Shown: piece by piece, positions 43,324 through 62,294 of the stretch
How positions within the stretch are numbered: position 1 is the first letter of the stretch
Layout: each line of letters starts with the position of its first letter
Source of the DNA: an uncultured Candidatus Saccharibacteria bacterium
GTDB lineage: Bacteria; Patescibacteriota; Minisyncoccia; Phycocordibacterales; UBA9973
Direction of reading: 5' to 3'
Assembly: GCA_964553015.1 (NCBI GenBank)
Contig: CAZKJE010000002.1
Coordinates: 14,175-78,174, forward strand
DNA: 64,000 nt
Program-made: the position numbers and the translations under genes
Notes under the pieces: model-generated
Told to the model about the DNA's origin: nothing
What the model saw: only the letters and a program-made list of their open reading frames with translations
Database searches by the model: none

Positions 43324-43998
43324 ATGGCGAGAAAACAAGATAAACAAAGCGTTTTGGCTATGCGCAAGAGAGGAATGAGCTACAGCCAGATCAAAGGGAA
43401 AATAAAAATAAGCAAAAGCACTTTGAGTGTCTGGCTTAAAGATTTACCACTCGATGAAAAACGGATAAGAGAATTAAGAGACAATAGCCCTATTCGTATT
43501 GAAAAATTCAGAAATACAATGCGAGCAAAAAAAGAGATGAGACTTTATGAGGTATATAAAAAAGTCGCAAATGATATTTGTGATCTCTCAAAAAGAGATT
43601 TATTTTTAACAGGCTTGTTCTTATATTGGGGAGAAGGCACGAAATCACAAAATTCTTTAGTTGCCCTCACAAATACAAATCCAGCCATGGTTAAGTTTTT
43701 CATACAATGGCTAAAATTGTTTGGAGTAAAAAGCAAAGATTTGAAAATTAAACTACATTTATACTCCGATATGAAAATTAAAGAAAGTCTTGATTTTTGG
43801 TCAAAAGAGCTTAATATTCCGATAAGCCAGTTTTATAAGCCGTATGTTAAGAAAAATACTCTCAAATCTATCTCGTATAAAAATGGCTTTGGAAAAGGAA
43901 CATGTAGTGTTATATTTGGGAGTAGAGATCTTTGGGAATATATAACAATGGGATTGAAATATATTTCTGAAATTAGTAATGAAAATTTCCGCCCCTAG
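43324..43998 (+). CDS. HTH plus LAGLIDADG-like (homing-endonuclease-like) protein
   Basis: 224 aa. N-terminal resolvase-type HTH (RGMSYSQIKGKIKISKSTLSVWLK). A single LAGLIDADG-like motif (LTGLFLYWGEGTK). The last 10 nt, including the TAG stop, lie inside the tRNA gene. Confidence 0.45.
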   Translation: MARKQDKQSVLAMRKRGMSYSQIKGKIKISKSTLSVWLKDLPLDEKRIRELRDNSPIRIEKFRNTMRAKKEMRLYEVYKKVANDICDLSKRDLFLTGLFLYWGEGTKSQNSLVALTNTNPAMVKFFIQWLKLFGVKSKDLKIKLHLYSDMKIKESLDFWSKELNIPISQFYKPYVKKNTLKSISYKNGFGKGTCSVIFGSRDLWEYITMGLKYISEISNENFRP

Positions 43999-44061
43999 CT
44001 CAGTTGGTAGAGCAATCCGCTTATACCGGATCGGTCCTTGGTTCGAGTCCAAGGGGGCGGA
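43989..44061 (+). tRNA. tRNA-Ile with anticodon UAU
   Basis: Cloverleaf read by hand: acceptor CCGCCCC/GGGGCGG, D-arm GCTC-AGTTGGTA-GAGC, anticodon arm ATCCG-CTTATAC-CGGAT, variable loop CGGTC, T-arm CTTGG-TTCGAGT-CCAAG, discriminator A. CCA is not encoded. Confidence 0.8.
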
Positions 44062-44063
44062 CA

Positions 44064-44829: not shown

Positions 44830-47124
44830 ATGAAACCAACTGCAAAAATTTCAAAAAGCGAATTAGCAAAAATAAAAACTATCCGAAGGAGAACCGGAGA
44901 AGTGGTTCCGTTTGATCTCGACAGGGTAGCCCGCGCTACATTCAAGGCTTTTGAAGTTACCAGAGAGGGGGGAGAAAAGGAATCGGAAAAAGTTGCTACG
45001 AATGTTTTCAAAATGCTGCTTGACCTTCGGGAAGGCCTTTTGAAATCAAACAAGAGCGCAAAATTTCTGCCGACCGTGGAACTTGTGCAGGATTTTGTTG
45101 AAAAAGAATTGATGAAAGACGGGTTTACGGATACCGCGAAAAAATATATTTTATACCGAAACAAGCGTTCAGAGCTTCGCGCTACTTTCGGGCCGGTGTC
45201 AGAAGCAGTCCGCACCGCGGTTGAAGAATCCAGTAAATATTTCGGAAGCGCGTACTCTGAATATATTTTCTATCAATTTTATTCGCGCTGGGTGCCGGAG
45301 CTTGGCCGCCGCGAGACATGGATAGAAACTGTTGATCGCTACATGGCTTACATGAAAGAAAATCTGGCAAATAAACTTACCGCAAAAGAATATTCAGATG
45401 TGAGACAAGCTATCTTAAATCAGGATATTTGTCCTTCCATGAGGCTTCTCTGGTCTGCGGGCAAGGCCTGCAGACAATCGAACGTCTGGGCATACAACTG
45501 TTCCTACATCGCGCCTACGTGTCCGCAAGATCTAGGAGAGATAATGTATGTTTCAATGTGCGGAGCAGGCTTGGGGTTTGCCGTTGAATGGGAAAATGTT
45601 CAGCAGTTTCCGCAAATCCAAAAGCAAACAAATGAAAAGCCGATCACTCACGTAGTTATAGACAGCAAAGAAGGCTGGGCAGATGCTTTTGTTCTCGGGC
45701 TAACATCTTGGTTTGACGGCAAGGATGCAAAATTTGATTATTCGGGGATCAGGCCGGCCGGCGCACGACTGGAAACAGCAGGCGGTAAAGCATCCGGACC
45801 GCAGCCGCTGATGGATCTAATGGAGTTTGCAAAAAGAAAAATTTTAGCAAAACAGGGACGCAGACTTTCAAACATAGACATGCATGACATCATCTGCCAG
45901 ATCGGCATGATCGTCGTAGCCGGCGGAGTTCGCCGAAGCGCCCTCATCTCCTTGTCAGAACTGGAGGACACAGAGATGCGCGACGCAAAGAAGGGACAAT
46001 TTTATCTGACCGAAGGTCAGCGCAGCATGGCAAACAATTCTGCGGTGTACAACGCAAAGCCGGGAGCAGAAGAATTTCTTGATGAATGGACTTCTCTTGT
46101 AAAATCAAAATCCGGCGAACGCGGAATTTTCAATCGCGCGGGGCTGGAAAAACAAGTGCCGGCTCGCAGATGGGCAGCGATCAAAAATGAAAGACAGATG
46201 GGATTAAATCCTTGCGGAGAAATTTATCTTCGTTCAAAACAATTTTGTAATTTGACCAGCATTGTAATCCGTCCGAAGGACACCGCGGAAACTCTGAAGA
46301 GAAAAATGGAGCTGGCGACACTTCTCGGAACGTATCAGTCCACCCTTACCAATTTCGGATATCTTTCAAAGAAGTGGAAAGAGAACTGCGAAGAAGAAAG
46401 ATTGCTCGGCGTATCGCTCACTGGCTACTATGACAATCCTCTTATACGAACCGATAAAGTTTTGGATATGTTAAAAAAGGATTCAGTAGAAACAAATAAA
46501 AAATATGCAAAACGCTTTGGCATAAATCCTTCTACGGCTATCACCTGCGTAAAACCTCATGGAAATTCCGGGCAGCTCCTCGGCGTCGGCTCCGGCATGC
46601 ACCCTTGGTTTGCTCCTTATTTCATCCGCCGTGTGCGCATTTCTCACACTGATACTCTTTTAAAGATGGCCCGAGATCAGGGAGTGCCATGTGTCCCAGA
46701 AGTAGGACAGGCAGAAGGAAGCGCCACTACGTATGTACTCGAATTTCCAGTCAAGGCGCCGCAGGGAGCAATATTCAAAGATGAAGTTTCCGCTCTTGAT
46801 CTCATGAAAGAATGGAAGAGGCTAAAAGAGCATTTTGTGGAGCACAATCCTTCGGCTACCATATATGTCGGCCCTGACGAATGGATCGCCGTAGGAAACT
46901 TTGTCTACGAAAATTGGGACTGGATCGGCGGACTTTCCTTTCTTCCTCGCTCGGAACACGTGTATCAGCTCGCTCCATACGAGCCCATAACAAAAGAACA
47001 GTACGAACGCCGCACAAGGGCAATCGGCAAGATTGACTTCTCAAAACTTTCTCAATATGAGGCGCAGGATAATACTACCGGCGCCAAAGAATTCGCGTGC
47101 GTTTCAGGCGTCTGTGAAATATAA
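44830..47124 (+). CDS. nrdJ: Class II (adenosylcobalamin-dependent) ribonucleotide reductase
   Basis: 764 aa. N-terminal ATP-cone, active-site NPCGEI and FCNL motifs, and a C-terminal redox pair CVSGVCEI. Confidence 0.85.
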   Translation: MKPTAKISKSELAKIKTIRRRTGEVVPFDLDRVARATFKAFEVTREGGEKESEKVATNVFKMLLDLREGLLKSNKSAKFLPTVELVQDFVEKELMKDGFTDTAKKYILYRNKRSELRATFGPVSEAVRTAVEESSKYFGSAYSEYIFYQFYSRWVPELGRRETWIETVDRYMAYMKENLANKLTAKEYSDVRQAILNQDICPSMRLLWSAGKACRQSNVWAYNCSYIAPTCPQDLGEIMYVSMCGAGLGFAVEWENVQQFPQIQKQTNEKPITHVVIDSKEGWADAFVLGLTSWFDGKDAKFDYSGIRPAGARLETAGGKASGPQPLMDLMEFAKRKILAKQGRRLSNIDMHDIICQIGMIVVAGGVRRSALISLSELEDTEMRDAKKGQFYLTEGQRSMANNSAVYNAKPGAEEFLDEWTSLVKSKSGERGIFNRAGLEKQVPARRWAAIKNERQMGLNPCGEIYLRSKQFCNLTSIVIRPKDTAETLKRKMELATLLGTYQSTLTNFGYLSKKWKENCEEERLLGVSLTGYYDNPLIRTDKVLDMLKKDSVETNKKYAKRFGINPSTAITCVKPHGNSGQLLGVGSGMHPWFAPYFIRRVRISHTDTLLKMARDQGVPCVPEVGQAEGSATTYVLEFPVKAPQGAIFKDEVSALDLMKEWKRLKEHFVEHNPSATIYVGPDEWIAVGNFVYENWDWIGGLSFLPRSEHVYQLAPYEPITKEQYERRTRAIGKIDFSKLSQYEAQDNTTGAKEFACVSGVCEI

Positions 47125-47157
47125 GCGCGAAATAGGAAAGCTCTAAAATAAAAGTTT

Positions 47158-47715
47158 ATGCTTTATACCAGAAAAGGGGATGGAGGCACGACCAAGACTT
47201 TTGGATGCGATCAGCGCATTTCAAAAAGCTCTTTGGTGGCGGAAGCACTCGGTTCGCTGGATGAGACTAATTCTTTTTTAGGCATTGCGCGAGCTAAAAC
47301 TGAAGGCTTGAGTTTTAAAGTTGGAACAGGGGAAATAAAATTTTCAGAACTGATTTTAGAAACCCAGCAGAATTTATTTATCGTGCAGGCAGAAGTCGCA
47401 GGTTCTACTCTTTTCATCACGCAGGATAAAATAACTCGAGTTGAAAATATAGTTGATGAAATAGAAAAAGTTCTACCGCCGATTAAAAGTTTCTTCATCA
47501 GCGGGGCGACAGAGCTAGGTGGAATTTTTGATTTCGCGCGAACGCTTTCAAGGCGGGCGGAGAGGAGAGTAGTCGCCGCCAAAGAAGAAGGTAAAATAAC
47601 TGTGAGCGCAGAAACAATGTCTTATTTAAACAGACTTTCAAGTTTACTGTATGCTCTAGCAAGAATCTCAAGCCACATTGAGGGCGTAGAAGAAGTAAAA
47701 CCAGAATATAAATAA
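47158..47715 (+). CDS. PduO-type ATP:cob(I)alamin adenosyltransferase
   Basis: 185 aa. N-terminal YTRKGDGGTT motif and the PduO/MMAB helical bundle pattern. Confidence 0.85.
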   Translation: MLYTRKGDGGTTKTFGCDQRISKSSLVAEALGSLDETNSFLGIARAKTEGLSFKVGTGEIKFSELILETQQNLFIVQAEVAGSTLFITQDKITRVENIVDEIEKVLPPIKSFFISGATELGGIFDFARTLSRRAERRVVAAKEEGKITVSAETMSYLNRLSSLLYALARISSHIEGVEEVKPEYK

Positions 47716-51770: not shown

Positions 51771-53486
51771 ATGCAAACCAGAATAAAAAATTTAATAAGA
51801 GATGCGCTGAAAAATCTCAACATTGAAGTGAGCGAAATTTCCCTGGAGCATCCGGAAGATTTGAAAAACGGGGATTATTCTACAAATGTTGCCCTAGCTA
51901 TTGCAAAAAATATGGGAGAAAAACCGAAACATCTTGCCGAAAAAATAGTAAAAGAATTAGAAAGATTAAATACAGACAAAAATATAGAAAAATTTCAAGT
52001 TGCAGGCGCTGGATTTATAAATTTTTATTTATCGCGCAGATATTTTGCCGGCAGCATAGAGGAAATTGTAAACAAAGGGGGTAATATCGGCAAAAACGAC
52101 GTGCTTTCTGGAAAAAAAATAATGGTGGAATACACCGACCCAAATCCTTTTAAGCCTTTTCATATAGGCCACCTCATGACAAATGCCATCGGTGAATCTT
52201 TGGCAAGAATCTTAGAACACTCGGGCGCCGAAATTTCCCGCGCAAATTATTATGGAGATGTGGGGTTGCATGTGGCAAAAGCGATCTACGGCCTATTAAA
52301 AGATACTGATCTTCAAAGCAAAGCAGGTTCACACAACGAACAGGCTTCTAATATAGGCAAAGCATACGTTCTCGGCGCGGAAGTCTATGATAGTAATGAT
52401 TTTTCTAAAAAAGACATTGATGAAATAAATAAAAAAATTTATGCTCGAAGCGACCAGGAAATAAATGACATATATGACTGGGGATATAAAGTGACGATGG
52501 AGGCGTTTGAAGATTTATATAAAATGCTTGGCACGAAGTTTGATTTTTATTTTCCAGAAAGCCAAATGGCGCCCATTGGTGAAGATATTGTTCGTGCTAA
52601 TGTTGGTAAAATTTTTGACAAATCGGACGGCGCTATTGTGTTTAAAGCTGAAAAACATGACCCAAAACTGCATACTAGAGTTTTTATAACCTCCCAGGGA
52701 CTACCTACTTACGAGACAAAAGAATTCGGGTTAACTGAAGAAAAATTTAAAACGGAGCCAGATATGGATATTTCTGTTGTGGTTACGGCAAACGAGCAGG
52801 CAGATTATATGAAAGTTGTTGCCAAAGCCATTTCTCTTATTAAACCCGAACATGAGAAAAAAATGCTGCATATAACTCACGGCATGATGCGCTTGGAAGG
52901 CGGCAAAATGAGTTCCAGAAAAGGAAATGTAGTAACGGGTGAATCTCTAATTCGCGATACCATAGCCCTCATAGGTGAAAAAATCAAAGATAAAGACTGG
53001 AATAATGCAGAAAAAAATAAAATTGCCGAGATTGTCGGCGTCGCAGCGATAAAATATTCCATACTTCGCTCCAGAGCGGGAAGTGATATTGTGTATAACG
53101 CCGAAGAATCAGTTTCCACCGAAGGGGACTCTGGTCCATACCTGCAATATTCCTATGCCCGCGCAAATTCTGTCTTAGAAAAAGCGCAAAAGGAAAACAT
53201 ACTGCCGGATTTTGAAAAATTGCCGGAAGAAATTTTTGAAATAGAAAAATTTCTGTACAAATTTCCAGAAGTTGTCCTGCGCTCTTCATCGCTGTATGAG
53301 CCGCATCATATTACAGGCTACTTAGTAGAAATCGCTCGCGCATTTAACAGTTTTTATGGCAACAATTTGATCGTAAAAAAAGAAGACGACACCTCTCCGT
53401 ACAAAGTCGCCCTGACGTACGCCTTTTCTTTTGTAATGAAAACCGGTCTGCACCTCCTCGGCATCGAAGCCCCGAAGCAAATGTAG
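51771..53486 (+). CDS. argS: Arginine--tRNA ligase
   Basis: 571 aa. HIGH-type PFHIGHLM, a KMSK-like GKMSSRKGN, and a DALR anticodon-binding C-terminus. Confidence 0.95.
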   Translation: MQTRIKNLIRDALKNLNIEVSEISLEHPEDLKNGDYSTNVALAIAKNMGEKPKHLAEKIVKELERLNTDKNIEKFQVAGAGFINFYLSRRYFAGSIEEIVNKGGNIGKNDVLSGKKIMVEYTDPNPFKPFHIGHLMTNAIGESLARILEHSGAEISRANYYGDVGLHVAKAIYGLLKDTDLQSKAGSHNEQASNIGKAYVLGAEVYDSNDFSKKDIDEINKKIYARSDQEINDIYDWGYKVTMEAFEDLYKMLGTKFDFYFPESQMAPIGEDIVRANVGKIFDKSDGAIVFKAEKHDPKLHTRVFITSQGLPTYETKEFGLTEEKFKTEPDMDISVVVTANEQADYMKVVAKAISLIKPEHEKKMLHITHGMMRLEGGKMSSRKGNVVTGESLIRDTIALIGEKIKDKDWNNAEKNKIAEIVGVAAIKYSILRSRAGSDIVYNAEESVSTEGDSGPYLQYSYARANSVLEKAQKENILPDFEKLPEEIFEIEKFLYKFPEVVLRSSSLYEPHHITGYLVEIARAFNSFYGNNLIVKKEDDTSPYKVALTYAFSFVMKTGLHLLGIEAPKQM

Positions 53487-53544
53487 TAATTATCCCCCTT
53501 TTGTCTGGCTATTGTTTTCAATCCTGTTATTATTAAGGATAGTT

Positions 53545-55965
53545 ATGAATCTCCGGCAAAACTTGTCGATTTTATTTATTCTAGCTATTTTTTCGTTTCT
53601 AGTATTTTTAGGCAGTTTCCCTTCTCTGGTTTTTGCCACTGTGTATACAGGATCTACGGGTATTGTGTACTCAGATTTTGATGAGGTTGGGTTAGGGCCT
53701 CATGGCTTTAAGGATGTAATTGCGGAATGTCCTCCCGGCATTGGGGCAGTAAACTCTTTGAAAGATAATATTACTCTCGGCAGTGCTGCTTCCTGCAGCA
53801 ATTCGTATTTTTGGTTACAAAATAACATGGCCGTGAATGGTAACAATAACGACGAGCAGATTGCGGACGGGCATTACTGTATTTATGTAAATGGTGGAAA
53901 CCAGAGTGAATGTACGCATGGAGAATTTGATATAGTAAACGGTCTTCTTGTAGGTTCGCCTTGCTTAGAAAATTGTTTCTCAAATGTGCTTTTCTTGCCG
54001 GGGCTTGAATCAAGCCGTTTGTATACCCAAAGAACTGATGGCAGCGAAGACCAGCTCTGGGAGCCAAATGGCAATAGCGATGTTGAAGACATATATTTAA
54101 ATACAGACGGCACAAGCAAAAATCCTGATATTTACACACGAGATATTATTAAAGAAACAAATACGCCATTTCCATCAGGCTCTGCCGGCCAAAATATTTA
54201 TAAAAGCTTTTCCGACACTATGAATCAGCTTGTCGATGATTTTAAAATTGCGGACTGGCAACCTTACGCCTATGACTGGCGGCAAGATGTAAATGATATT
54301 GTGAATAACGGAACAAAATATCAGGATGGCAGTAAATCTCTCATTGAAACCCTGCAGTCGCTTGTCGATTCGTCAAAAAATGGAAAGGTGACAATAGTAG
54401 CTCACAGCAACGGCGGACTTTTAGCGAAAGCTCTGCTCAAAAAATTACAGAATGATAAAGCTGCCGGAATTAATAATTTAATTGATAGTGTAGATGTGTT
54501 GATTTTAGTCGCTGTTCCGGAAATAGGGACGGCAAAATCAGTGTCAGCAATACTGCATGGATACGATCAGCAAATATTGGGAGGTCTGCTCATGAATGAA
54601 ACTCATGTGCGCGAACTCGGCAGAAATATGAACGGAGCTTACGGACTTTTGCCAAGCCGGGAATATATAAATAGAGTGAGTGCGTCGCCGGCGACTTTCG
54701 TGGATACAGCGCTTCCTTCAAATGTCACAACTTCATTTGTGCAAAAATATGGGAATGTAATAGATTCGTATGCTGAATACAAAGATTTTCTCTTTGGCGC
54801 AGAAGGCAGGACAGATCCAGCGATAAGCCAAACAAATTTACCGATTAATTTATCTCAAAATTTATTTTCAAAAGCTGAAAATTTGCACGACAGCATAGAC
54901 AACTTTACTCCACCCACAAGCTTGCGAGTGATAGAAGTAGCCGGTTGGGGCTTGGACACGGTGGCGAGTTTTGAATACTATCCGAAAAAACAACAATGCG
55001 GGCAATTGATTTGTCCTTTCACTTTAGACGAAAGACCTCGTTTTACGTCGGATGGAGATAAAACTGTTGTGGTGCCGAGTGCACATTATATGAGCCTTGG
55101 CGGGGCGGAGAAATATTGGGTAAATCTTCCATTTTATAATGATGGATTAACGAAAAATAGAGAACATAAAGATATATTGGAAGTTGATCCAATTTTGAAT
55201 TTAATATCAAGTACAATTCAGAATTTGTCGTTAGATAATTCACCTTATTTATCTTCCGCGGCACCAACAGATTCTTCAAATCGTTTTCGAATTTCAATTC
55301 ACTCGCCCGTAACCATAGATGCATACGATGAAGAAGGAAATCACACCGGGAAAATTTGTCCTCAAAATTCTGACTTCTGTTATGCAGAAGAAAATATACT
55401 AAATAGCTCATATCTTGAATTCGGAGAAGGGAAGTACATTAATCTGCCAGAAGACCAAATGGCAAAAGTCATACTTCAGGGAACCGATATTGGAACTTTT
55501 ACCTATGAATCTGAAAAAGTTTTACCCGACGAAACATCAACCACTTCTTCCTTTATAGATATTCCAGTGACGACGCAGACACAAGGAGAAATAACGCTTG
55601 ATCAAGATGGTATGCCACAACTGGCATTAGACGTGACAGGAGATGGGGTTATTGATTTCAATATTTTACCAAATACTGCTTTTGACCCTGTTTTATATTT
55701 ACAGATCATGAAAACTACCATTGATTCCCTTGATTTAAACCAAGGCCAGATCAAAGCCTTTGATAATCGGGTTGATATCATAATTAAATCCATACAAGAA
55801 GGAAAATCTGACAACACTAAACTAAAAGCAGAGATATTCAAATCTGCTATTCAAAAGACATTATCTAAACCCGATTTGAAAACTCCAAAACCCAAAAAGT
55901 TATCTAAAACAGACGCACAATTATTGCTTGATATAATGAATAAATTATTAGATAATATTAGTTAA
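53545..55965 (+). CDS. Secreted alpha/beta-hydrolase (lipase/esterase-like) protein
   Basis: Start moved to ATG 53545, giving the signal peptide MNLRQNLSILFILAIFSFLVFLGSFPSLVFA. Nucleophile elbow VAHSNGG (GxSxG-type). Confidence 0.55.
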   Translation: MNLRQNLSILFILAIFSFLVFLGSFPSLVFATVYTGSTGIVYSDFDEVGLGPHGFKDVIAECPPGIGAVNSLKDNITLGSAASCSNSYFWLQNNMAVNGNNNDEQIADGHYCIYVNGGNQSECTHGEFDIVNGLLVGSPCLENCFSNVLFLPGLESSRLYTQRTDGSEDQLWEPNGNSDVEDIYLNTDGTSKNPDIYTRDIIKETNTPFPSGSAGQNIYKSFSDTMNQLVDDFKIADWQPYAYDWRQDVNDIVNNGTKYQDGSKSLIETLQSLVDSSKNGKVTIVAHSNGGLLAKALLKKLQNDKAAGINNLIDSVDVLILVAVPEIGTAKSVSAILHGYDQQILGGLLMNETHVRELGRNMNGAYGLLPSREYINRVSASPATFVDTALPSNVTTSFVQKYGNVIDSYAEYKDFLFGAEGRTDPAISQTNLPINLSQNLFSKAENLHDSIDNFTPPTSLRVIEVAGWGLDTVASFEYYPKKQQCGQLICPFTLDERPRFTSDGDKTVVVPSAHYMSLGGAEKYWVNLPFYNDGLTKNREHKDILEVDPILNLISSTIQNLSLDNSPYLSSAAPTDSSNRFRISIHSPVTIDAYDEEGNHTGKICPQNSDFCYAEENILNSSYLEFGEGKYINLPEDQMAKVILQGTDIGTFTYESEKVLPDETSTTSSFIDIPVTTQTQGEITLDQDGMPQLALDVTGDGVIDFNILPNTAFDPVLYLQIMKTTIDSLDLNQGQIKAFDNRVDIIIKSIQEGKSDNTKLKAEIFKSAIQKTLSKPDLKTPKPKKLSKTDAQLLLDIMNKLLDNIS

Positions 55966-55966
55966 T

Positions 55967-56344
55967 ATGAAGAAAATTATTAGTTTGTCCTTGTTTATAT
56001 TATCCTTAGCAATATTCTTTTGGTTGTCATCTTATACTAATGAATGGCCATTTAATTACCATGTATCAGAATTTGTTAGCTACTTGTTTTATTGGAGTAG
56101 CGTGTTATTTATAGTAAGTCTACTAGCCTTAACTCTTAATCAAAAAAAATATAAAATTTGGCTTTTTGTAACTATTATTTATATTGCAATATCTGTTTTA
56201 ATTGCTTGGGCTACAGGAGATGGAAATGGTGCTATTGTAAGCTTTGACGGAGAATTAACTACATGGTTTTTAATAGGGTTGTATTCTTTAATTTCAATAA
56301 TTTATTTTATTGCTCAATTCTTCAAGGAAAACAAATCCAACTAA
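55967..56344 (+). CDS. Integral membrane protein, hypothetical
   Basis: 125 aa with four hydrophobic helices. Confidence 0.5.
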   Translation: MKKIISLSLFILSLAIFFWLSSYTNEWPFNYHVSEFVSYLFYWSSVLFIVSLLALTLNQKKYKIWLFVTIIYIAISVLIAWATGDGNGAIVSFDGELTTWFLIGLYSLISIIYFIAQFFKENKSN

Positions 56345-56396
56345 TTACGTAGCAAATTACGTAATTAAATAATTACATAGAGCGGCGTTAGTTTTC

Positions 56397-56600
56397 TTAG
56401 TCGTCTCCTACGTGATCGTTATGGTCTATGGGCGTGATATCGTATGGTGATTTTGGTTTTTCGCCGGGTGGCGGTGGTTCGGGAAGAATACCTATTCGTA
56501 GTTCTTCCTGTATCTCTCGGAACGGCTTTCTCTGGGGAGTTGGTTCCCATTCTTCTTGGTGGTTTTTCATGTTTTTATTATAGCACAAAAAGTTATGCAC
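56397..56600 (-). CDS. Small Pro/Glu-rich hypothetical protein
   Basis: ORF of 67 aa (or 57 aa from the internal ATG at 56570). No recognised family. Confidence 0.35.
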   Translation of the reverse strand: MHNFLCYNKNMKNHQEEWEPTPQRKPFREIQEELRIGILPEPPPPGEKPKSPYDITPIDHNDHVGDD

Positions 56601-56644
56601 TTTGGCAAGTACTTGACTTTGTTTATAGGTATATAATTATAGTG

Positions 56645-56920
56645 GAGTCAAATTGCACGCCTGAGTAGTTTGAAAGGAAATCCAAATGAGCTCTGAGTCA
56701 CGGTCACCCAATTTCCCAAGGCAGATGAAGCGGTATTGGTGGATGCGAAGGACACCACCGCCTCCATACCCCGTTCTCCGGCGCTTGCGCCTAGTGTTTC
56801 AGAACCACAACAGCGCAGTGTCACTTTCGGTCAAGGGAGTGATTCAGAGACATCTCGTGCGAGGCTAATCACTCCGCAGACCCGCGGGCACACCCGAGTG
56901 CCCGCTTCGTTTTTTCTTTT
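56645..56920 (+). ncRNA. GC-rich structured RNA or leader of unknown class upstream of ileS
   Basis: A non-coding stretch, visibly GC-richer than its flanks. It contains several strong local helices, for example GGAGTGATT/AATCACTCC and GGTGG/CCACC. It ends in the intrinsic terminator at 56884..56920. Confidence 0.3.
56884..56920 (+). terminator. Intrinsic terminator preceding the ileS promoter
   Basis: GCGGGCAC-ACCCGA-GTGCCCGC followed by TTCGTTTTTTCTTTT. Confidence 0.7.
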
Positions 56921-56947
56921 GATATATGGTATATTTTCTTTACATAT

Positions 56948-59900
56948 ATGCAGAAGCATGAAAACAATAACTCCAAATCAGAAGCAGCTTTGCGCGAAGA
57001 GCGAGTTTTGGAATTTTGGAAAGAAAATAAGATATTTAAAAAGTCGCTGGAGAAAAAATCCCCAAAGGGAGAATTTGTGTTTTATGATGGTCCAGTTACG
57101 GCAAACTCAAAGCCAGTTTTGCATACAATGCTACCTTTTTCTTTCAAAGATGTTATTCCCAGATATAAAACTATGCGCGGATATCATGTACGAAGGAAAG
57201 GCGGTTGGGATACGCATGGGCTTCCGGTAGAACTGCAAATAGAAAAAAAACTTGGGTTCAATTCAAAAGCAGATATTGAAAATTATGGTATTGCAGCTTT
57301 CAATAAATTATGTAAGGACAGTGTTTGGGAGTACGTTGGGGCATGGAAAAGTTTTACCGAACGAATGGGCTACTGGGCAGATCAAGATAATGCATATGTC
57401 ACATATTATAATAATTATATTGAATCTGTTTGGAATATAGTAAAAAAAATAAATGAGCAGAATCTGCTTTATAAAGATTACAAAGTGGTGCCGTGGTGCC
57501 CGAGGTGCGGTACAGCACTGTCTTCGCATGAGCTCGCACAGGGATACGAAGATGTAAAAGATCTGTCAGTGTATGTAAAGTTTAAGATAACTACGCCAGT
57601 GCAGGAAAATTCTGCCGCTTTACCCGCAAGCGGGCTCCGACACGGACAAAATTTTCCCGCATTGGCTCCGCAGTATATCCTCGCCTGGACGACGACGCCG
57701 TGGACCCTGCCCGGGAACGTTGCCTTAGCCGTCGGCGAAAATATTGATTATGTAAAGGTAAAGAGTGGAGAAGAGTTTTATATTCTCGCCAAAGAGAAGC
57801 TTTCAATCATAACCGAACCATATGAGATAGTGGAAGAGGTCAAGGGCGCGGGGCTAGTAGGGCTCGAATACGAGCCGTTGTATCCATATCTTGCAAATAC
57901 GGTTTCGGATACAGAAAAACCAAAATTAGAAAAGGCATACAAGGTGCACAAGGCAAACTTTGTGACCACAGATGACGGCACCGGCGTGGTGCATACGGCT
58001 GTGATGTATGGGCAAGATGACTTTATGCTCGGAACAGAAGTCGGCCTGCCGAAGCACCACCTCGTAGGTCTCGATGGCAAATTTTTAGCAGGCACAGGTA
58101 TTTTTGAAGGACGATTTGTAAAAGATGAAGAAGTCGCCGTAGATATCATTAAAGACTTGGCGCACCGCGGGCTTCTTTTCAAAAAAGAAAAATACGAGCA
58201 CTCGTATCCGCACTGCTGGCGCTGTAAAACTCCGCTCATATATTACGCGCGGGATTCTTGGTATATCCGGATGTCTGATCCTAGAATAAAAGCCGAAATG
58301 ATAAAGGAGAATAAAGAAATAAACTGGGAGCCGGAGCATATTCGCGACGGGCGGTTTGGGCAGTGGCTGGAAGAAATAAAAGACTGGGCAATATCCCGCG
58401 AACGGTACTGGGGCACGCCGCTGCCGGTCTGGGCCTGCGAAGCGTGTAAAAAAATTGAAGTAGTAGGAAGCGTAGAAGATCTAAAAAGTAGAACCAAAAA
58501 GTCTGGCAATAAATATTTTGTGATGCGGCACGGCGAGGCTGTCGATAACGCCAAGCATTTGGGTGATCCGAAAGGCGATCCAAATAATCACCTGACTGAT
58601 AAAGGGAAAAAAGAAATAATTCTTACCGCAGAAGAATTAAAAAATAAAAAAATTGATTTTATCTTTACGTCTTCTTTTCTGCGAACCAAAGAAACAGCAG
58701 AGGTCTTGAGAAAAGAACTAGGTTTGGAGCAAGAAAAAGTAATAGTTGAAGATAGATTGCATGAACACAATGAGGGAGACACTAAGCTCGTTCGCAAAAG
58801 GATGGCCGACTTTATTTATGAAATAGAAAAAAATTACGAAAATAAAAATATCTTAATAATTTCGCACGGAAATCCTATCTGGATCCTGCAGAAAACCGCT
58901 TTGGGCTTGTCTATAAATAATTTTACAGAAGGCGAGATGCTGCATACCGGCGAAGTCAAAGAATTAGATTTTATACCGCTACCGCATAATGAAAATTATG
59001 AGCTTGATCTGCACAAGCCTTATATAGATGAAATAAATCTTGTTTGTTCATGTGGTGGAAAATTAACACGCACGAAAGAAGTCATGGACGTGTGGTTTGA
59101 TTCGGGAGGCATGTCTTTTGCGCAGGATCATTACCCTTTCGATAACGCTTCCGGTAAATCTTTTGACGGCAAAGAACTTTTATATCCGGCGGATTTTATT
59201 TCAGAGGGCATAGATCAGACGCGCGGATGGTTTTACACCTTGCATGCTGTTGGAATTCTCTTGGGGCGGGGCAAGGCTTACAAAAACGTAATCTGCCTTG
59301 GCCATCTTCTCGACGCTAAGGGCAAAAAAATGTCCAAATCTCTCGGCAACGTCGTCGAGCCGTTTCTTGCGATGGATACATATGGCGTGGATACTTTGCG
59401 TTTGTGGATGTATTCCATAAATCAGCCGGGCGAATCCAAGAATTTTGATGAGAAAACAGTAGCGCTTCTTTCTCAGCAGATTTTTGGCTTGCTTTACAAT
59501 GTGCTTGCGTTTTATGAACTTTATCGCGATGTTTCGCTAGAGCCTAGAGCCTATGGCCTAAAGCCCAGCAATATTTTAGATAAATGGATCTTGGCGCGTC
59601 TAGATGAGTTGACAGAGCTTGCAACCAAAAATTTAGATAACTACAAATTGCTGGAGCCAGTGCGGGGCATGAGAGACTTTATCGGCGATCTTTCTACTTG
59701 GTATTTGCGCCGTTCGCGCGACAGGATAAAATCCTCCTCCGCACAAGGCTCCGGTGGAACAAGGGAAGGAGATGAAGCGAAGGAAACTCTGTACTATGTG
59801 CTAAAAACCTTGGCAAAACTCATGGCTCCGCTCGCGCCGTTTGCCGCTGAAGACATCTGGCTTAAGTTAAAAAATGAAGATGATGAAGAAAGCGTGCATT

Positions 59901-60448
59901 TGGCGAGCTGGCCGGAAGTAAAAAAGACATCTTTTATCTCCAAGTTGCTTAAAAATGATCCAAGCAAAAAAATAATTGAAAATATGGAGAGCGTCAGAAG
60001 AGTAGTCACACTCGGACTCGAAGCTCGACAGAAAACCGGAATAAAAGTCCGCCAGCCTCTTAATCAATTACGAATTAAAAATTACGAATTAGGAATTGAG
60101 TATGCAGACTTGATTAGAGAAGAGCTGAATGTCAGAGAAGTTATTTTTGATAATTCTATTGAAGGCGAGGTGTGGCTCGATATAAGAATAAACGAAGAGC
60201 TCAAAGCTGAAGGGGATTACAGGGAGTTTGTCCGCGCGCTGCAGGATATGAGAAAGAAAACCGGACTGACGCCGAGCGACGTGGTCTCTGTTACTTTTGA
60301 AACAAACAAAGCAGGCAAGGAACTTATTAAAAAATTCGAAGCTGAAATGAAAAAAACAGTGCTTGTCTCTACGATAGAATTTTCGGAAAATGAAGGAGAA
60401 AAAATAAAAATCGACAATCTTCACTTCAGGATAAAAATTGATAAATAA
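56948..60448 (+). CDS. ileS: Isoleucine--tRNA ligase with a nested histidine-phosphatase domain
   Basis: 1166 aa. IleRS hallmarks: WDTHGLPVE, editing-domain [10 protein letters not shown] and [13 protein letters not shown], KMSKS. An extra domain of about 163 aa lies at residues 522-684. Confidence 0.9.
   Translation: [1166 protein letters not shown]
58511..58999 (+). other. Histidine-phosphatase (PGAM-like) domain inserted within ileS
   Basis: Ordered motifs [43 protein letters not shown] and LIISHGNPI. Flanked by IleRS CxxC (ACEACKK) and CxC (VCSCGG) segments. Confidence 0.75.
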
Positions 60449-60452
60449 AAAT

Positions 60453-61055
60453 ATGAAGCTCGTTATTTTTGATTTTGATGGGGTGCTGGTTGATACGCTC
60501 ATAATGCATTATGAGATCAGTAAAAAAATCAATAAAAATATGTCTCTTGACATGTTTCGTTCCATTTTTAGTGGGAATATCTACGATTCATTAAAAAATA
60601 ATCCTGCCATAAAACAACATCCTCAGTTTTTCGAGCAATATGAAGACAAATCACGAGAGCTCAAAGTGCCTCAATCGTTGAAGGGTTTGATAGGTAAATT
60701 AAGCAAAGAACATACCCTTGCGATTGTTTCATCAACTCCATCTGCGCTCATTAGAAAAATTCTAAAACAAGAAGCTGTTTTAAATTATTTTTCTGATGTA
60801 CTTGGGGCAGATGTTAATACAAGTAAAGTTATTAAAATAAGAATGCTTTTGGGAAAATATAAAATTAAACAAGAAGATGCAGTTTTTATTACAGATACCA
60901 CAGGGGACATTTTTGAGGCCCTAGAATGCGGAGTAAAAGCCATAGCTGTCACATGGGGTTTTCACGAAGAAAAAACATTAGAAAAATCAAATCCAGCGAA
61001 AATTGTTAGGAGCCCCGAAGAATTATTTGAAGCTGTGAAGCAAATTTTGTGTTAA
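60453..61055 (+). CDS. HAD-superfamily hydrolase
   Basis: Start moved to ATG 60453. Motif I is IFDFDGVLVDT. Motifs II (SST) and IV (TDTTGD) are also present. Confidence 0.8.
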   Translation: MKLVIFDFDGVLVDTLIMHYEISKKINKNMSLDMFRSIFSGNIYDSLKNNPAIKQHPQFFEQYEDKSRELKVPQSLKGLIGKLSKEHTLAIVSSTPSALIRKILKQEAVLNYFSDVLGADVNTSKVIKIRMLLGKYKIKQEDAVFITDTTGDIFEALECGVKAIAVTWGFHEEKTLEKSNPAKIVRSPEELFEAVKQILC

Positions 61056-61712: not shown

Positions 61713-62294
61713 ATGCACCACATTTATCATACTGAAGGCATAATATTGGGCAGTAGAGGCTACGGCGAAACGGGGAAGTACTATTCTATTTTTACTAAAG
61801 ATTTAGGCATGATATACGCGTGCGCACAAGGCGTGCGCAAGATGTCTTCCAAGCTGCGTTTTATTCTGCAGGATTTTGCTTATCTAAAAATTGATCTGGT
61901 GCAGGGGAAGGATTTTTGGCGGGTGACCAGCGCTTCTAAAACTAATATACTTGAAAATGTTTCTAAAAATTCTTCAACCCTAAAGGTATTTTTCAACATC
62001 GCAAGCCTGCTCAAAAGACTGCTCGCCGGCGTAGAGCCAAATCCCGCTTTATTTTCTGATTTAATCAATGGTCTTGCAGTGTTGGAAAAAATAGAAAAGG
62101 AAGCGGACTTGCGAAATGTTGAAGCAGTCATGGTCTTGCGAATTCTTAACAACTTGGGGTATATAGGCGGAGATAAAATTCTGGAAAATCTTATCACGTC
62201 TCCTTTTGAGCAAGAGCTTATATATGAAGCCTCAAAGCAGAGGCGCGATGTTCTCAAAGAAATCAATAAAGCGTTAAAAGAAACGCATTTGTAA
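61713..62294 (+). CDS. recO: DNA repair protein RecO
   Basis: 193 aa. N-terminal OB-fold pattern (EGIILGSRGYGETGKYYSIFTKDLGMIYACAQGVRK) typical of RecO. Confidence 0.75.
   Translation: MHHIYHTEGIILGSRGYGETGKYYSIFTKDLGMIYACAQGVRKMSSKLRFILQDFAYLKIDLVQGKDFWRVTSASKTNILENVSKNSSTLKVFFNIASLLKRLLAGVEPNPALFSDLINGLAVLEKIEKEADLRNVEAVMVLRILNNLGYIGGDKILENLITSPFEQELIYEASKQRRDVLKEINKALKETHL

Follow-up and report, generated by a model that had tools for sequence, protein, structure and literature searches.

A histidine phosphatase domain nested in the catalytic region of type-2 isoleucyl-tRNA synthetases from candidate phyla radiation bacteria

The 64,000-nucleotide stretch of DNA analyzed here (the window; contig CAZKJE010000002.1 of an uncultured Candidatus Saccharibacteria bacterium) carries an ileS gene whose product, an isoleucyl-tRNA synthetase (IleRS), is interrupted by a second enzyme, a complete and apparently active histidine phosphatase. 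The gene is one unbroken open reading frame (ORF) of 1166 amino acids at 56948..60448 (+), and its exact protein is found as an NCBI entry (P0021) in a collection of 5.8 billion proteins. Judging from sequence and gene position, the nested module (amino acids 523-676, 58514..58975, +) is the evolutionary equivalent of a free-standing phosphatase of ~190 amino acids whose gene, in sister Parcubacteria, directly precedes an ileS without the insert and is coupled to it in translation. We consider it probable that the polypeptide is a single bifunctional IleRS-phosphatase with the architecture described below, in which the guest would work as an autonomous phosphomonoesterase acting in trans.

Results

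The host is a type-2 IleRS interrupted in its third connective peptide

Pfam divides the tRNA-synt_1 match of the ORF (E 1.7e-111) into two stretches with His_Phos_1 between them, the pattern that an earlier, sequence-only reading of this DNA had anticipated, and further matches to Anticodon_1 (PF08264, E 2e-30) and DUF5915. The NCBIfam ileS model TIGR00392 scores 868.9 bits, above its cut-off of 621.4. The best solved relatives are type-2 enzymes, those of P. megaterium (8c8w, E 3e-230) and T. thermophilus (1ile, E 4e-217), and the protein scores 770 bits against PmIleRS2 versus 321 bits against PmIleRS1 (8c9f). In line with this assignment, it ends in DUF5915 and has the type-2 C-terminal organization, which lacks the C-terminal zinc-binding domain. 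The CP1 editing domain, named after its connective peptide (CP), aligns to 1wk8 and 1wny and contains the motif WTTTPWTLPGN (amino acids 247-257, invariant in alignment A3), and the anticodon-binding domain is present. For conservation counts, we aligned 74 full-length orthologues with MAFFT; the KMSKS loop (amino acids 794-798, 59327-59341) is kept in 74/74 of them, with K, M and K individually in 73-74/74. By its sequence, the ORF is thus a housekeeping type-2 IleRS with intact KMSKS, editing and anticodon-binding domains, and we infer that it charges tRNA-Ile from these intact motifs and from its orthologous position between argS and recO.

The one departure lies at the HIGH signature. Instead of the canonical HxGH, the window protein has V-L-H-T (amino acids 57-60, 57116..57127, +), with a single histidine and a threonine at position 4, aligned with PHVGHAL in 8c8u and PGVHHAL in 8c8w. 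The motif is polymorphic over the 74 orthologues, where we found H[IY]GH (~29), G[IL]HH (~30), A.HH, VLHT and HAGS/HTGS; position 57 is G in 30, H in 29, A in 8 and V in 4, and position 60 is H in 61, S in 7 and T in 4. A/GXHH variants are functional in IleRS2, and the swapped GxHH motif has been linked to mupirocin hyper-resistance (PMC10485003). Serine or threonine at position 4 goes beyond the A/GXHH forms described, and our literature search found no functional test of the threonine variant.

The site of the insertion is sharply defined. In the HMMER alignment to 8c8w, query residues 514 and 679 are matched to chain residues 476 and 479, respectively, so that ~160 extra residues stand in place of a 3-residue turn of the solved enzyme. 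This turn lies between the CxxC pair C497/C500 (C497-x2-C500; 58436..58447, +) and the CxC pair C700/C702 (59045-59053, +), the two halves of a zinc knuckle. In PfIleRS, residues 640-706 form CP3, and residue 707 already belongs to the Rossmann fold again (PMC12077802); in PmIleRS2, the HUP catalytic core comprises residues 40-168 and 513-632 (PMC10485003). By alignment, the insertion site is therefore CP3 of the four-part scheme (CP-core/CP1/CP2/CP3), the connective peptide directly before the second Rossmann half; under the two-CP nomenclature, which divides the connective region into CP1 and CP2, the same site is named CP2.

Accordingly, the host reads as two parts on either side of the guest. 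The N-terminal part (amino acids 1-514, 56948..58489, +; tRNA-synt_1 stretch 20-522, 8c8w 7-476) holds the first Rossmann half, the CP1 editing domain, and CP2/CP3 as far as the first knuckle half. The C-terminal part (amino acids 685-1166, 59000..60448, +; 8c8w 479-1028, Anticodon_1, DUF5915) holds C700/C702, the second Rossmann half, KMSKS, and the anticodon-binding and type-2 C-terminal domains. Two linkers join host and guest. The first, RTKKSGNK (amino acids 515-522, 58490..58513, +), is derived from the host loop, because the native loop of insert-less forms reads ...ELEK.SG.K-xx-[DE]LH... with K[VLA]SG[QKV]K at the same place; KKSGNKYF is kept in both groups of hosts described below. 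The second, PLPHNENY (amino acids 677-684, 58976..58999, +), is seen as PLPHNxNY in nested forms only, in both host groups, and is absent from standalone phosphatases and from insert-less IleRS encoded beside such a phosphatase. The sequence-only reading had placed the domain at 58511-58999, which corresponds exactly to amino acids 522-684, in an uninterrupted frame; both points hold. Nor is the segment an ordinary connective peptide, since solved type-1 and type-2 IleRS structures lack it.

The guest is a histidine phosphatase of no curated subfamily

His_Phos_1 (PF00300) is found in the whole protein at E 2.2e-23 (83.4 bits against a gathering threshold of 21.7) and in the excised insert by itself at E 8e-26 (91.3 bits). 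The motifs occur in the order that the sequence-only reading had listed, and all five are there: RHG at 527-529 with N534 behind it, R579 and T583 in FLRTKET, E606 in LHEHNEG, and H640 in SHG. Together they make up the catalytic core of branch-1 histidine phosphatases, that is the RHG histidine, two arginines, the second histidine and an acidic donor. The RHG triad (R527, H528 and G529; 58526..58534, +) contains the predicted phospho-acceptor nucleophile, H528; R579 (58682..58684, +) lies in the S..RT.ET motif and would line the phosphate pocket; E606 (58763..58765, +), in L.E...G, is the predicted general acid; and H640 (58865..58867, +) is the second catalytic histidine. The fold of the insert was predicted with confidence, and the model has the alpha/beta fold of branch-1 enzymes. 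The full-length AlphaFold2 model, by contrast, has a mean predicted local distance difference test (pLDDT) score of 70 and a predicted template modeling (pTM) score of 0.41, with the Rossmann core below pLDDT 50, so that inter-domain geometry is not readable from it.

Structural and sequence neighbors of the insert (comparison figures in brackets) are a riboflavin-pathway phosphatase, 9mmh (20.3), PhoE (19.9), PspA (19.5) and CobC (18.9), followed by GpgP (18.5), SixA (17.5), PGAM5 (15.7) and the His_Phos domain of MutT1 (15.3). None of the subfamily models scored for these and related enzymes reaches its cut-off: the insert obtains 56 against 225 for archaeal dPGM (NF038349, dPGM_arch), 27.7 against 81.7 for dPGM TIGR01258, 45 against 74.5 for SixA (TIGR00249), 51 against 350 for PspA (NF045917) and 48 against 162.9 for CobC (TIGR03162). 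Because the insert reaches no curated subfamily cut-off, a substrate is not transferable by homology.

In the window, the domain is of a short form, without the ‘flap’ of ~31 amino acids that would follow the E...G motif and precede the next helix. Short forms of 151-174 amino acids are found in the window and at loci L002-L009 and L078, whereas most orthologues have a long form of ~195-205 amino acids. In this phosphatase family the flap region usually caps the active site, and the flap-less form should leave it more open.

The nested form is widespread and its catalytic residues are invariant

Using the insert with both junctions as query, we scanned one genome per GTDB species and found a relative in at least 102 species-representative genomes. 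The 80 loci that we kept match the query essentially in full, from residue 1-3 to 187, and all come from metagenome-assembled or single-amplified genomes of Patescibacteria/Parcubacteria (Nomura-, Zambryski-, Kaiser- and Adlerbacteria, Paceibacterota, Minisyncoccia). In 73 of the 80, one open frame covers IleRS together with its insert; it is at least 1000 amino acids long, mostly ~1050-1370. PF00300 is present in 119 of the 120 best homologues from the 5.8-billion-protein collection, and when 1.84 billion cluster representatives were searched exhaustively with HMMER, 362 matched at E<=1e-10; among the best 150 of these 362, most are embedded in IleRS, at about residues 480-700 of proteins of 900-1200 amino acids or fragments thereof. 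A search for the same architecture in the candidate phyla radiation (CPR), proposed in the sequence-only reading, thereby comes out in its favor, with the same junctions throughout.

This breadth also bears on whether the gene is real. The artefacts to consider are an assembly chimera, a frameshifted fusion of two genes, and a misread connective peptide, and the related contig L001 does have a gene broken by frameshifts. It shows the same junction as the window, however, with several indels and frameshifts spread over the gene, consistent with assembly errors. A chimeric join is excluded even without read mapping because at least 102 independent species genomes share the junctions; with 73 independent single-frame loci, identical junction motifs, a Pfam E-value of 2e-23 and absence of the segment from all solved IleRS, we assign an artefact a negligible probability and side with the sequence-only reading that the insertion is genuine.

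Across the 74 orthologues, the core of the domain does not vary: R527, H528, R579, T583, E606 and H640 are found in 74/74, G529 in 73/74 and N534 in 71/74, RHG is invariant in both host groups, and R618 is likewise invariant. Over its whole length, the insert is less conserved than its host, with a mean pairwise identity of 39% versus 54%. Comparison of the sequences indicates that the phosphatase catalytic residues are under strong purifying selection. The zinc knuckle has fared differently. The Cys4 knuckle noted in the sequence-only reading is correct for the window protein, but its four CP3 cysteines are retained in only 21/74 nested-form IleRS and lost in 53/74; the three insert-less adjacent-form relatives keep them (3/3). 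This hints that a folded insert relieved the need for the knuckle zinc and that zinc binding became dispensable after the insertion.

The codon style of the insert had been described as matching the rest of the gene. Its GC content at third codon positions (GC3) does lie within the gene’s range but is somewhat lower, 0.37 versus 0.44 for the rest of the gene, where blocks range over 0.31-0.53 and neighboring genes over 0.28-0.43. A foreign origin of the insert by composition was considered and rejected, as 0.37 falls within both ranges.

Two side observations concern the wider family. Some orthologues (P0034, P0062, P0080, P0081, P0088, P0110 and P0121, as well as loci L005, L006, L015 and L022) carry a C-terminal extension of ~210 amino acids with an HD domain (metal-dependent phosphohydrolase), and thus two phosphohydrolase modules on one synthetase. 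We rejected this extension as a clue to substrate, its similarity being generic to HD proteins and weakly HDDC2/YfbR-like. Many insert-bearing proteins are named ‘class I tRNA ligase family protein’ by NCBI, while the insert-less P0056 is given the specific one, isoleucine--tRNA ligase; automatic annotation may suffer from the insertion.

A free-standing counterpart lies next to insert-less ileS

The closest free-standing relatives of the insert (P0003-P0016) are proteins of 180-216 amino acids with 34-45% identity to it. They align with the insert end to end, from the first strand (NKYFV.RHG) to the last residues (GE.KEL), and because they cover its full span the nested module equals a whole protein. 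In three of four lineages, only 1-6 bp separate the end of the standalone gene from an ileS that follows on the same strand and has no insert (950-1015 amino acids), within a block that reads smpB / argS / phosphatase / ileS / (x) / recO (L082-84, L085-87, L090-91). The window presents the corresponding block with the phosphatase inside ileS: L20, IF3, tmRNA, smpB ... argS (51771..53483, +), two inserted genes, ileS with its nested phosphatase, HAD, MBL and recO (61713..62294, +), where argS and recO were identified by Pfam. Where ileS bears the insert, it is preceded by argS in 32/67 loci and followed by recO in 42/74. We found no second phosphatase copy in any insert-bearing locus (+/-5 kb each) or in the 64-kb window. 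Within this same span, nested and adjacent arrangements never occur together, and they are positionally orthologous.

The domain has also been lost. P0056 (MBI2630700.1, Nomurabacteria, 1005 amino acids) is the closest relative of the window protein, with flanks 81% and 72% identical and the same VLHT motif, but it has no phosphatase domain. Its junction reads ...ELKKRSGGQLPKNEKDELDLH..., leaving remnants of both linkers, including LPKNEKD, and its 23-kb neighborhood, syntenic with the window, contains no His_Phos-like sequence. From these remnants and the synteny, P0056 is a clean secondary loss; at least one lineage therefore has a working ileS that does not need the domain.

Two host groups share one module

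The orthologues fall into two groups by their HIGH region. Group A (PPTANG.P[G/A/V]xH[H/T]) has 46 sequences including the window, whose IleRS scores 770 bits against the Priestia-type IleRS2 versus 563 against the yeast-type. Group B (PPFATG.PHYG[H/S]) has 29 sequences, and its member L045 scores 728 bits against the eukaryote-type versus 723 against the Priestia-type. The hosts share an identity of 0.65 inside group A and 0.56 inside group B, and of 0.47 across the two groups. Both groups nevertheless share the module, identical linkers and an identical catalytic set, and close to each of them there are insert-less IleRS that have a phosphatase gene next door.

The divergence of the insert does not follow that of the host. 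Pairwise identities of the insert correlate with those of host segments at rho <=0.11, whereas host segments correlate among themselves at rho 0.6-0.85; the fast C-terminal host domain is as uncorrelated as the insert, so that saturation is inseparable from a distinct history. In bootstrapped neighbor-joining trees, monophyly of nested inserts or of the short form obtains support of at most 0.37 on saturated distances. In none of the 74 cases, however, is the best match of a nested insert a standalone protein, and nested-nested identity (0.39) exceeds nested-standalone identity (0.34). These nearest-neighbor statistics, together with the shared linkers, favor a single origin of the nested state. 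The uncoupled divergence could reflect a cassette spread by recombination between ileS alleles, or it could be saturation and rate variation misleading the comparison.

Other features near ileS in the window

Most relatives have argS directly upstream of ileS. In the window, the two genes are separated by genes for an LCAT/lipase-like protein of 817 amino acids, which has a hydrophobic segment at its N-terminus, and for a membrane protein of 125 amino acids (53512-56344, +). At L085-L087 (3072-4841), HEPN/nucleotidyltransferase and AbiEii/DUF6922 toxin-antitoxin-like genes stand between argS and the phosphatase-ileS pair. Downstream, a HAD-family phosphatase gene (60438-61055, +) overlaps the ileS stop codon by 11 nt, and a close relative, L092, has a HAD gene downstream of ileS after a small intervening ORF. 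We discarded the HAD gene as a third phosphohydrolase partner; it is immediately downstream in 4/74 loci and its position is probably incidental.

The 600-nt gap upstream of ileS (56345-56947) is unusually long and GC-rich. Its leader resembles an attenuator, with a promoter-like site at 56613-56640, a leader of ~260 nt and a strong intrinsic terminator at 56884-56915, ~30 nt before the ATG. A T-box or other riboswitch in this gap was rejected: Rfam gives nothing at E<=1, folding reaches a z-score of only -1.64, and the sequence is unconserved in related loci.

Two further genes deserve mention. The window encodes a tRNA-Ile with anticodon UAU (43989-44062, +). Bacteria usually read AUA with a lysidine-modified CAU anticodon and UAU is uncommon; this tRNA may be relevant to tRNA recognition by the window IleRS. 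A class II (B12-dependent) ribonucleotide reductase with an ATP-cone (44830-47712, +) adjoins a PduO-type cobalamin adenosyltransferase.

Discussion

The host is a type-2 IleRS by every sequence test save the HIGH motif, and the guest belongs to PF00300 by sequence, motifs and fold, falling into no characterized subfamily. In the mechanism that we propose, a conserved neighboring gene would have become a domain nested inside ileS. The IleRS part would aminoacylate tRNA-Ile as usual. In the phosphatase, a phospho-histidine intermediate would arise from attack of H528 on the phosphate, which R527, N534, R579 and H640 would hold in place, and E606 would act as the general acid that protonates the leaving group. 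The substrate would be a diffusible phosphorylated molecule, and the tie to IleRS would consist of co-expression, a fixed 1:1 stoichiometry or co-localization rather than of a strict intramolecular channel. Action in trans is most likely because sister lineages use a separate protein and because the domain can be deleted without destroying ileS.

Several points weigh against this proposal. The recO gene is as conserved beside ileS as the phosphatase gene is, and in compact CPR genomes such adjacency may be conserved housekeeping synteny with no functional link. In the fourth standalone lineage (L088), the phosphatase lies between argS and recO with no ileS there. That two divergent IleRS lineages have kept the nested domain, its catalytic residues unchanged, points to more than neutral hitch-hiking. 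A role in cis is also conceivable, as the full-length model (pTM 0.41) does not fix the orientation of the pocket. Moreover, the proposal offers no route by which an upstream gene would become a nested domain.

If the covalent tether matters, the phosphatase could act on a translation-linked macromolecule held by IleRS, which we regard as a serious though less likely alternative. It might strip a 2'/3'-phosphate from the damaged 3' end of tRNA-Ile before charging, or it might remove an inhibitory phosphate placed on IleRS or the neighboring ArgRS by a toxin-type kinase, much as HipA phosphorylates GltX and HipT phosphorylates TrpS. The sequence-only reading had likewise suggested the tRNA 3' end, Ap4A or a regulatory phosphate as possible targets. 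The phosphatase stays with ileS in either of two arrangements, as an adjacent gene or as a nested domain, and the insertion lies in a connective peptide beside the catalytic core. The HD extension of some orthologues would add a second phosphohydrolase, histidine phosphatases fused to nucleic-acid or nucleotide enzymes exist (RNase H/acid phosphatase, NF005567; MutT1), and the flap-less form is SixA-like. Yet the nearest structural and sequence neighbors (PhoE, PspA, CobC, GpgP) are small-molecule phosphatases, most orthologues keep the flap, sister lineages use a separate protein, and P0056 has lost the domain outright. We know of no histidine phosphatase that acts on RNA ends, repair of tRNA ends is not expected to be specific to IleRS, and no conserved kinase or toxin is found in the neighborhood of the loci or the window. 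A bolder variant combines a cis-acting repair or counter-defense module (for the tRNA-Ile 3' end or toxin-phosphorylated IleRS) with a portable cassette spread by ileS recombination. The cassette idea arises because the same module and linkers occur in two divergent IleRS2 sublineages with a divergence uncoupled from the host; we hold the combination to be a long shot.

Small-molecule neighbors would also suit a specific metabolic enzyme, unrelated to translation, that rides in ileS through genome compaction, its coupling being of no selective value. Candidates are a phosphoserine, alpha-ribazole, sugar-phosphate or nucleotide phosphatase, or a pyrophosphate-removing enzyme. Among named families, PspA, archaeal dPGM, CobC and PhoE come nearest; serine and B12 metabolism are present in the window (serine hydroxymethyltransferase, the PduO-type adenosyltransferase and the B12-type ribonucleotide reductase), and P0056 dispenses with the domain. 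However, the scores for dPGM_arch, PspA, CobC and SixA all stay below the NCBIfam cut-offs, and a whole enzyme placed in an essential catalytic region, in two sublineages and with identical linkers, is hard to regard as neutral; we hold this account to be improbable. Alternatively, the domain might have ceased to be an enzyme and serve as a structural replacement for the zinc knuckle, or as a sensor of a phospho-metabolite that tunes IleRS allosterically. The loss of knuckle cysteines in 53/74 nested forms, set against their retention in 3/3 insert-less adjacent-form ones, suggests that the folded domain took over the structural part played by the loop, and the window form lacks the flap. A purely structural role would not keep H528 and E606, which are as invariant (74/74) as the phosphate-binding residues, and P0056 works without the domain and without a full Cys4 site; a non-enzymatic domain is thus very improbable. 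The bifunctional IleRS-phosphatase acting in trans remains the reading that we prefer.

Aminoacyl-tRNA synthetases are among the best-studied enzymes, and their acquired accessory domains have repeatedly revealed editing, signaling and complex formation. In the present case, a large branch of the CPR has an essential synthetase whose catalytic region is broken up by another whole enzyme with its active site intact. The CP3 knuckle loop emerges as a place where class Ia synthetases tolerate an inserted domain, a widely conserved CPR phosphatase gains a concrete functional partner, and natural variants with the domain, without it, and with split genes are on hand for experiments. Were the phosphatase to act on tRNA or the synthetase, it would represent a new kind of translation quality control or protection; were it to act on a metabolite, its nesting would be a striking case of gene compaction. 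The literature that we searched contains no description of a synthetase-histidine phosphatase architecture, in agreement with the sequence-only reading, which knew of none. The nested phosphatase goes unmentioned in a 2023 structural and phylogenetic study of IleRS and in a 2026 survey of ~96,000 IleRS sequences. The architecture thus seems undescribed, although the proteins are already in public databases with their Pfam domains precomputed.

How the protein compares with known systems depends on which half is considered. As a synthetase, it is collinear over its full length with IleRS2 (8C8U/8C8W, 1ILE), sharing KMSKS, the editing and anticodon-binding domains, the DUF5915 C-terminus and the CP3 Cys4 knuckle; it differs by the ~160 extra residues that form a second enzyme (at 8c8w 476-479) and by the one-histidine VLHT. 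As a phosphatase, it resembles free-standing enzymes of the PhoE/PspA/CobC/GpgP type and the Parcubacteria proteins P0003-P0016, but it is nested, flap-less and below curated cut-offs. The classic nested hydrolytic domain is the CP1 editing domain of IleRS, ValRS and LeuRS, which is universal and ancient and acts on mis-acylated tRNA. It too is a hydrolase in a connective peptide of the same enzyme’s Rossmann fold, and the scaffold evidently tolerates nested catalytic modules; the phosphatase, by contrast, is clade-restricted, of unrelated fold and in CP3, and its link to tRNA is at most putative. An IleRS with an extra enzyme domain has a precedent in NCBIfam NF040702 (‘ileS_w_GNAT’). Histidine phosphatases occur within other bifunctional proteins, namely RNase H/acid phosphatase (NF005567), mycobacterial MutT1 (3fjy, 9cxx), which joins a Nudix to a His_Phos domain, and PFK-2/FBPase-2. 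To our knowledge, these fusions are all end-to-end. In the window, by contrast, the phosphatase interrupts the catalytic region of its host, and its partner is an aminoacyl-tRNA synthetase.

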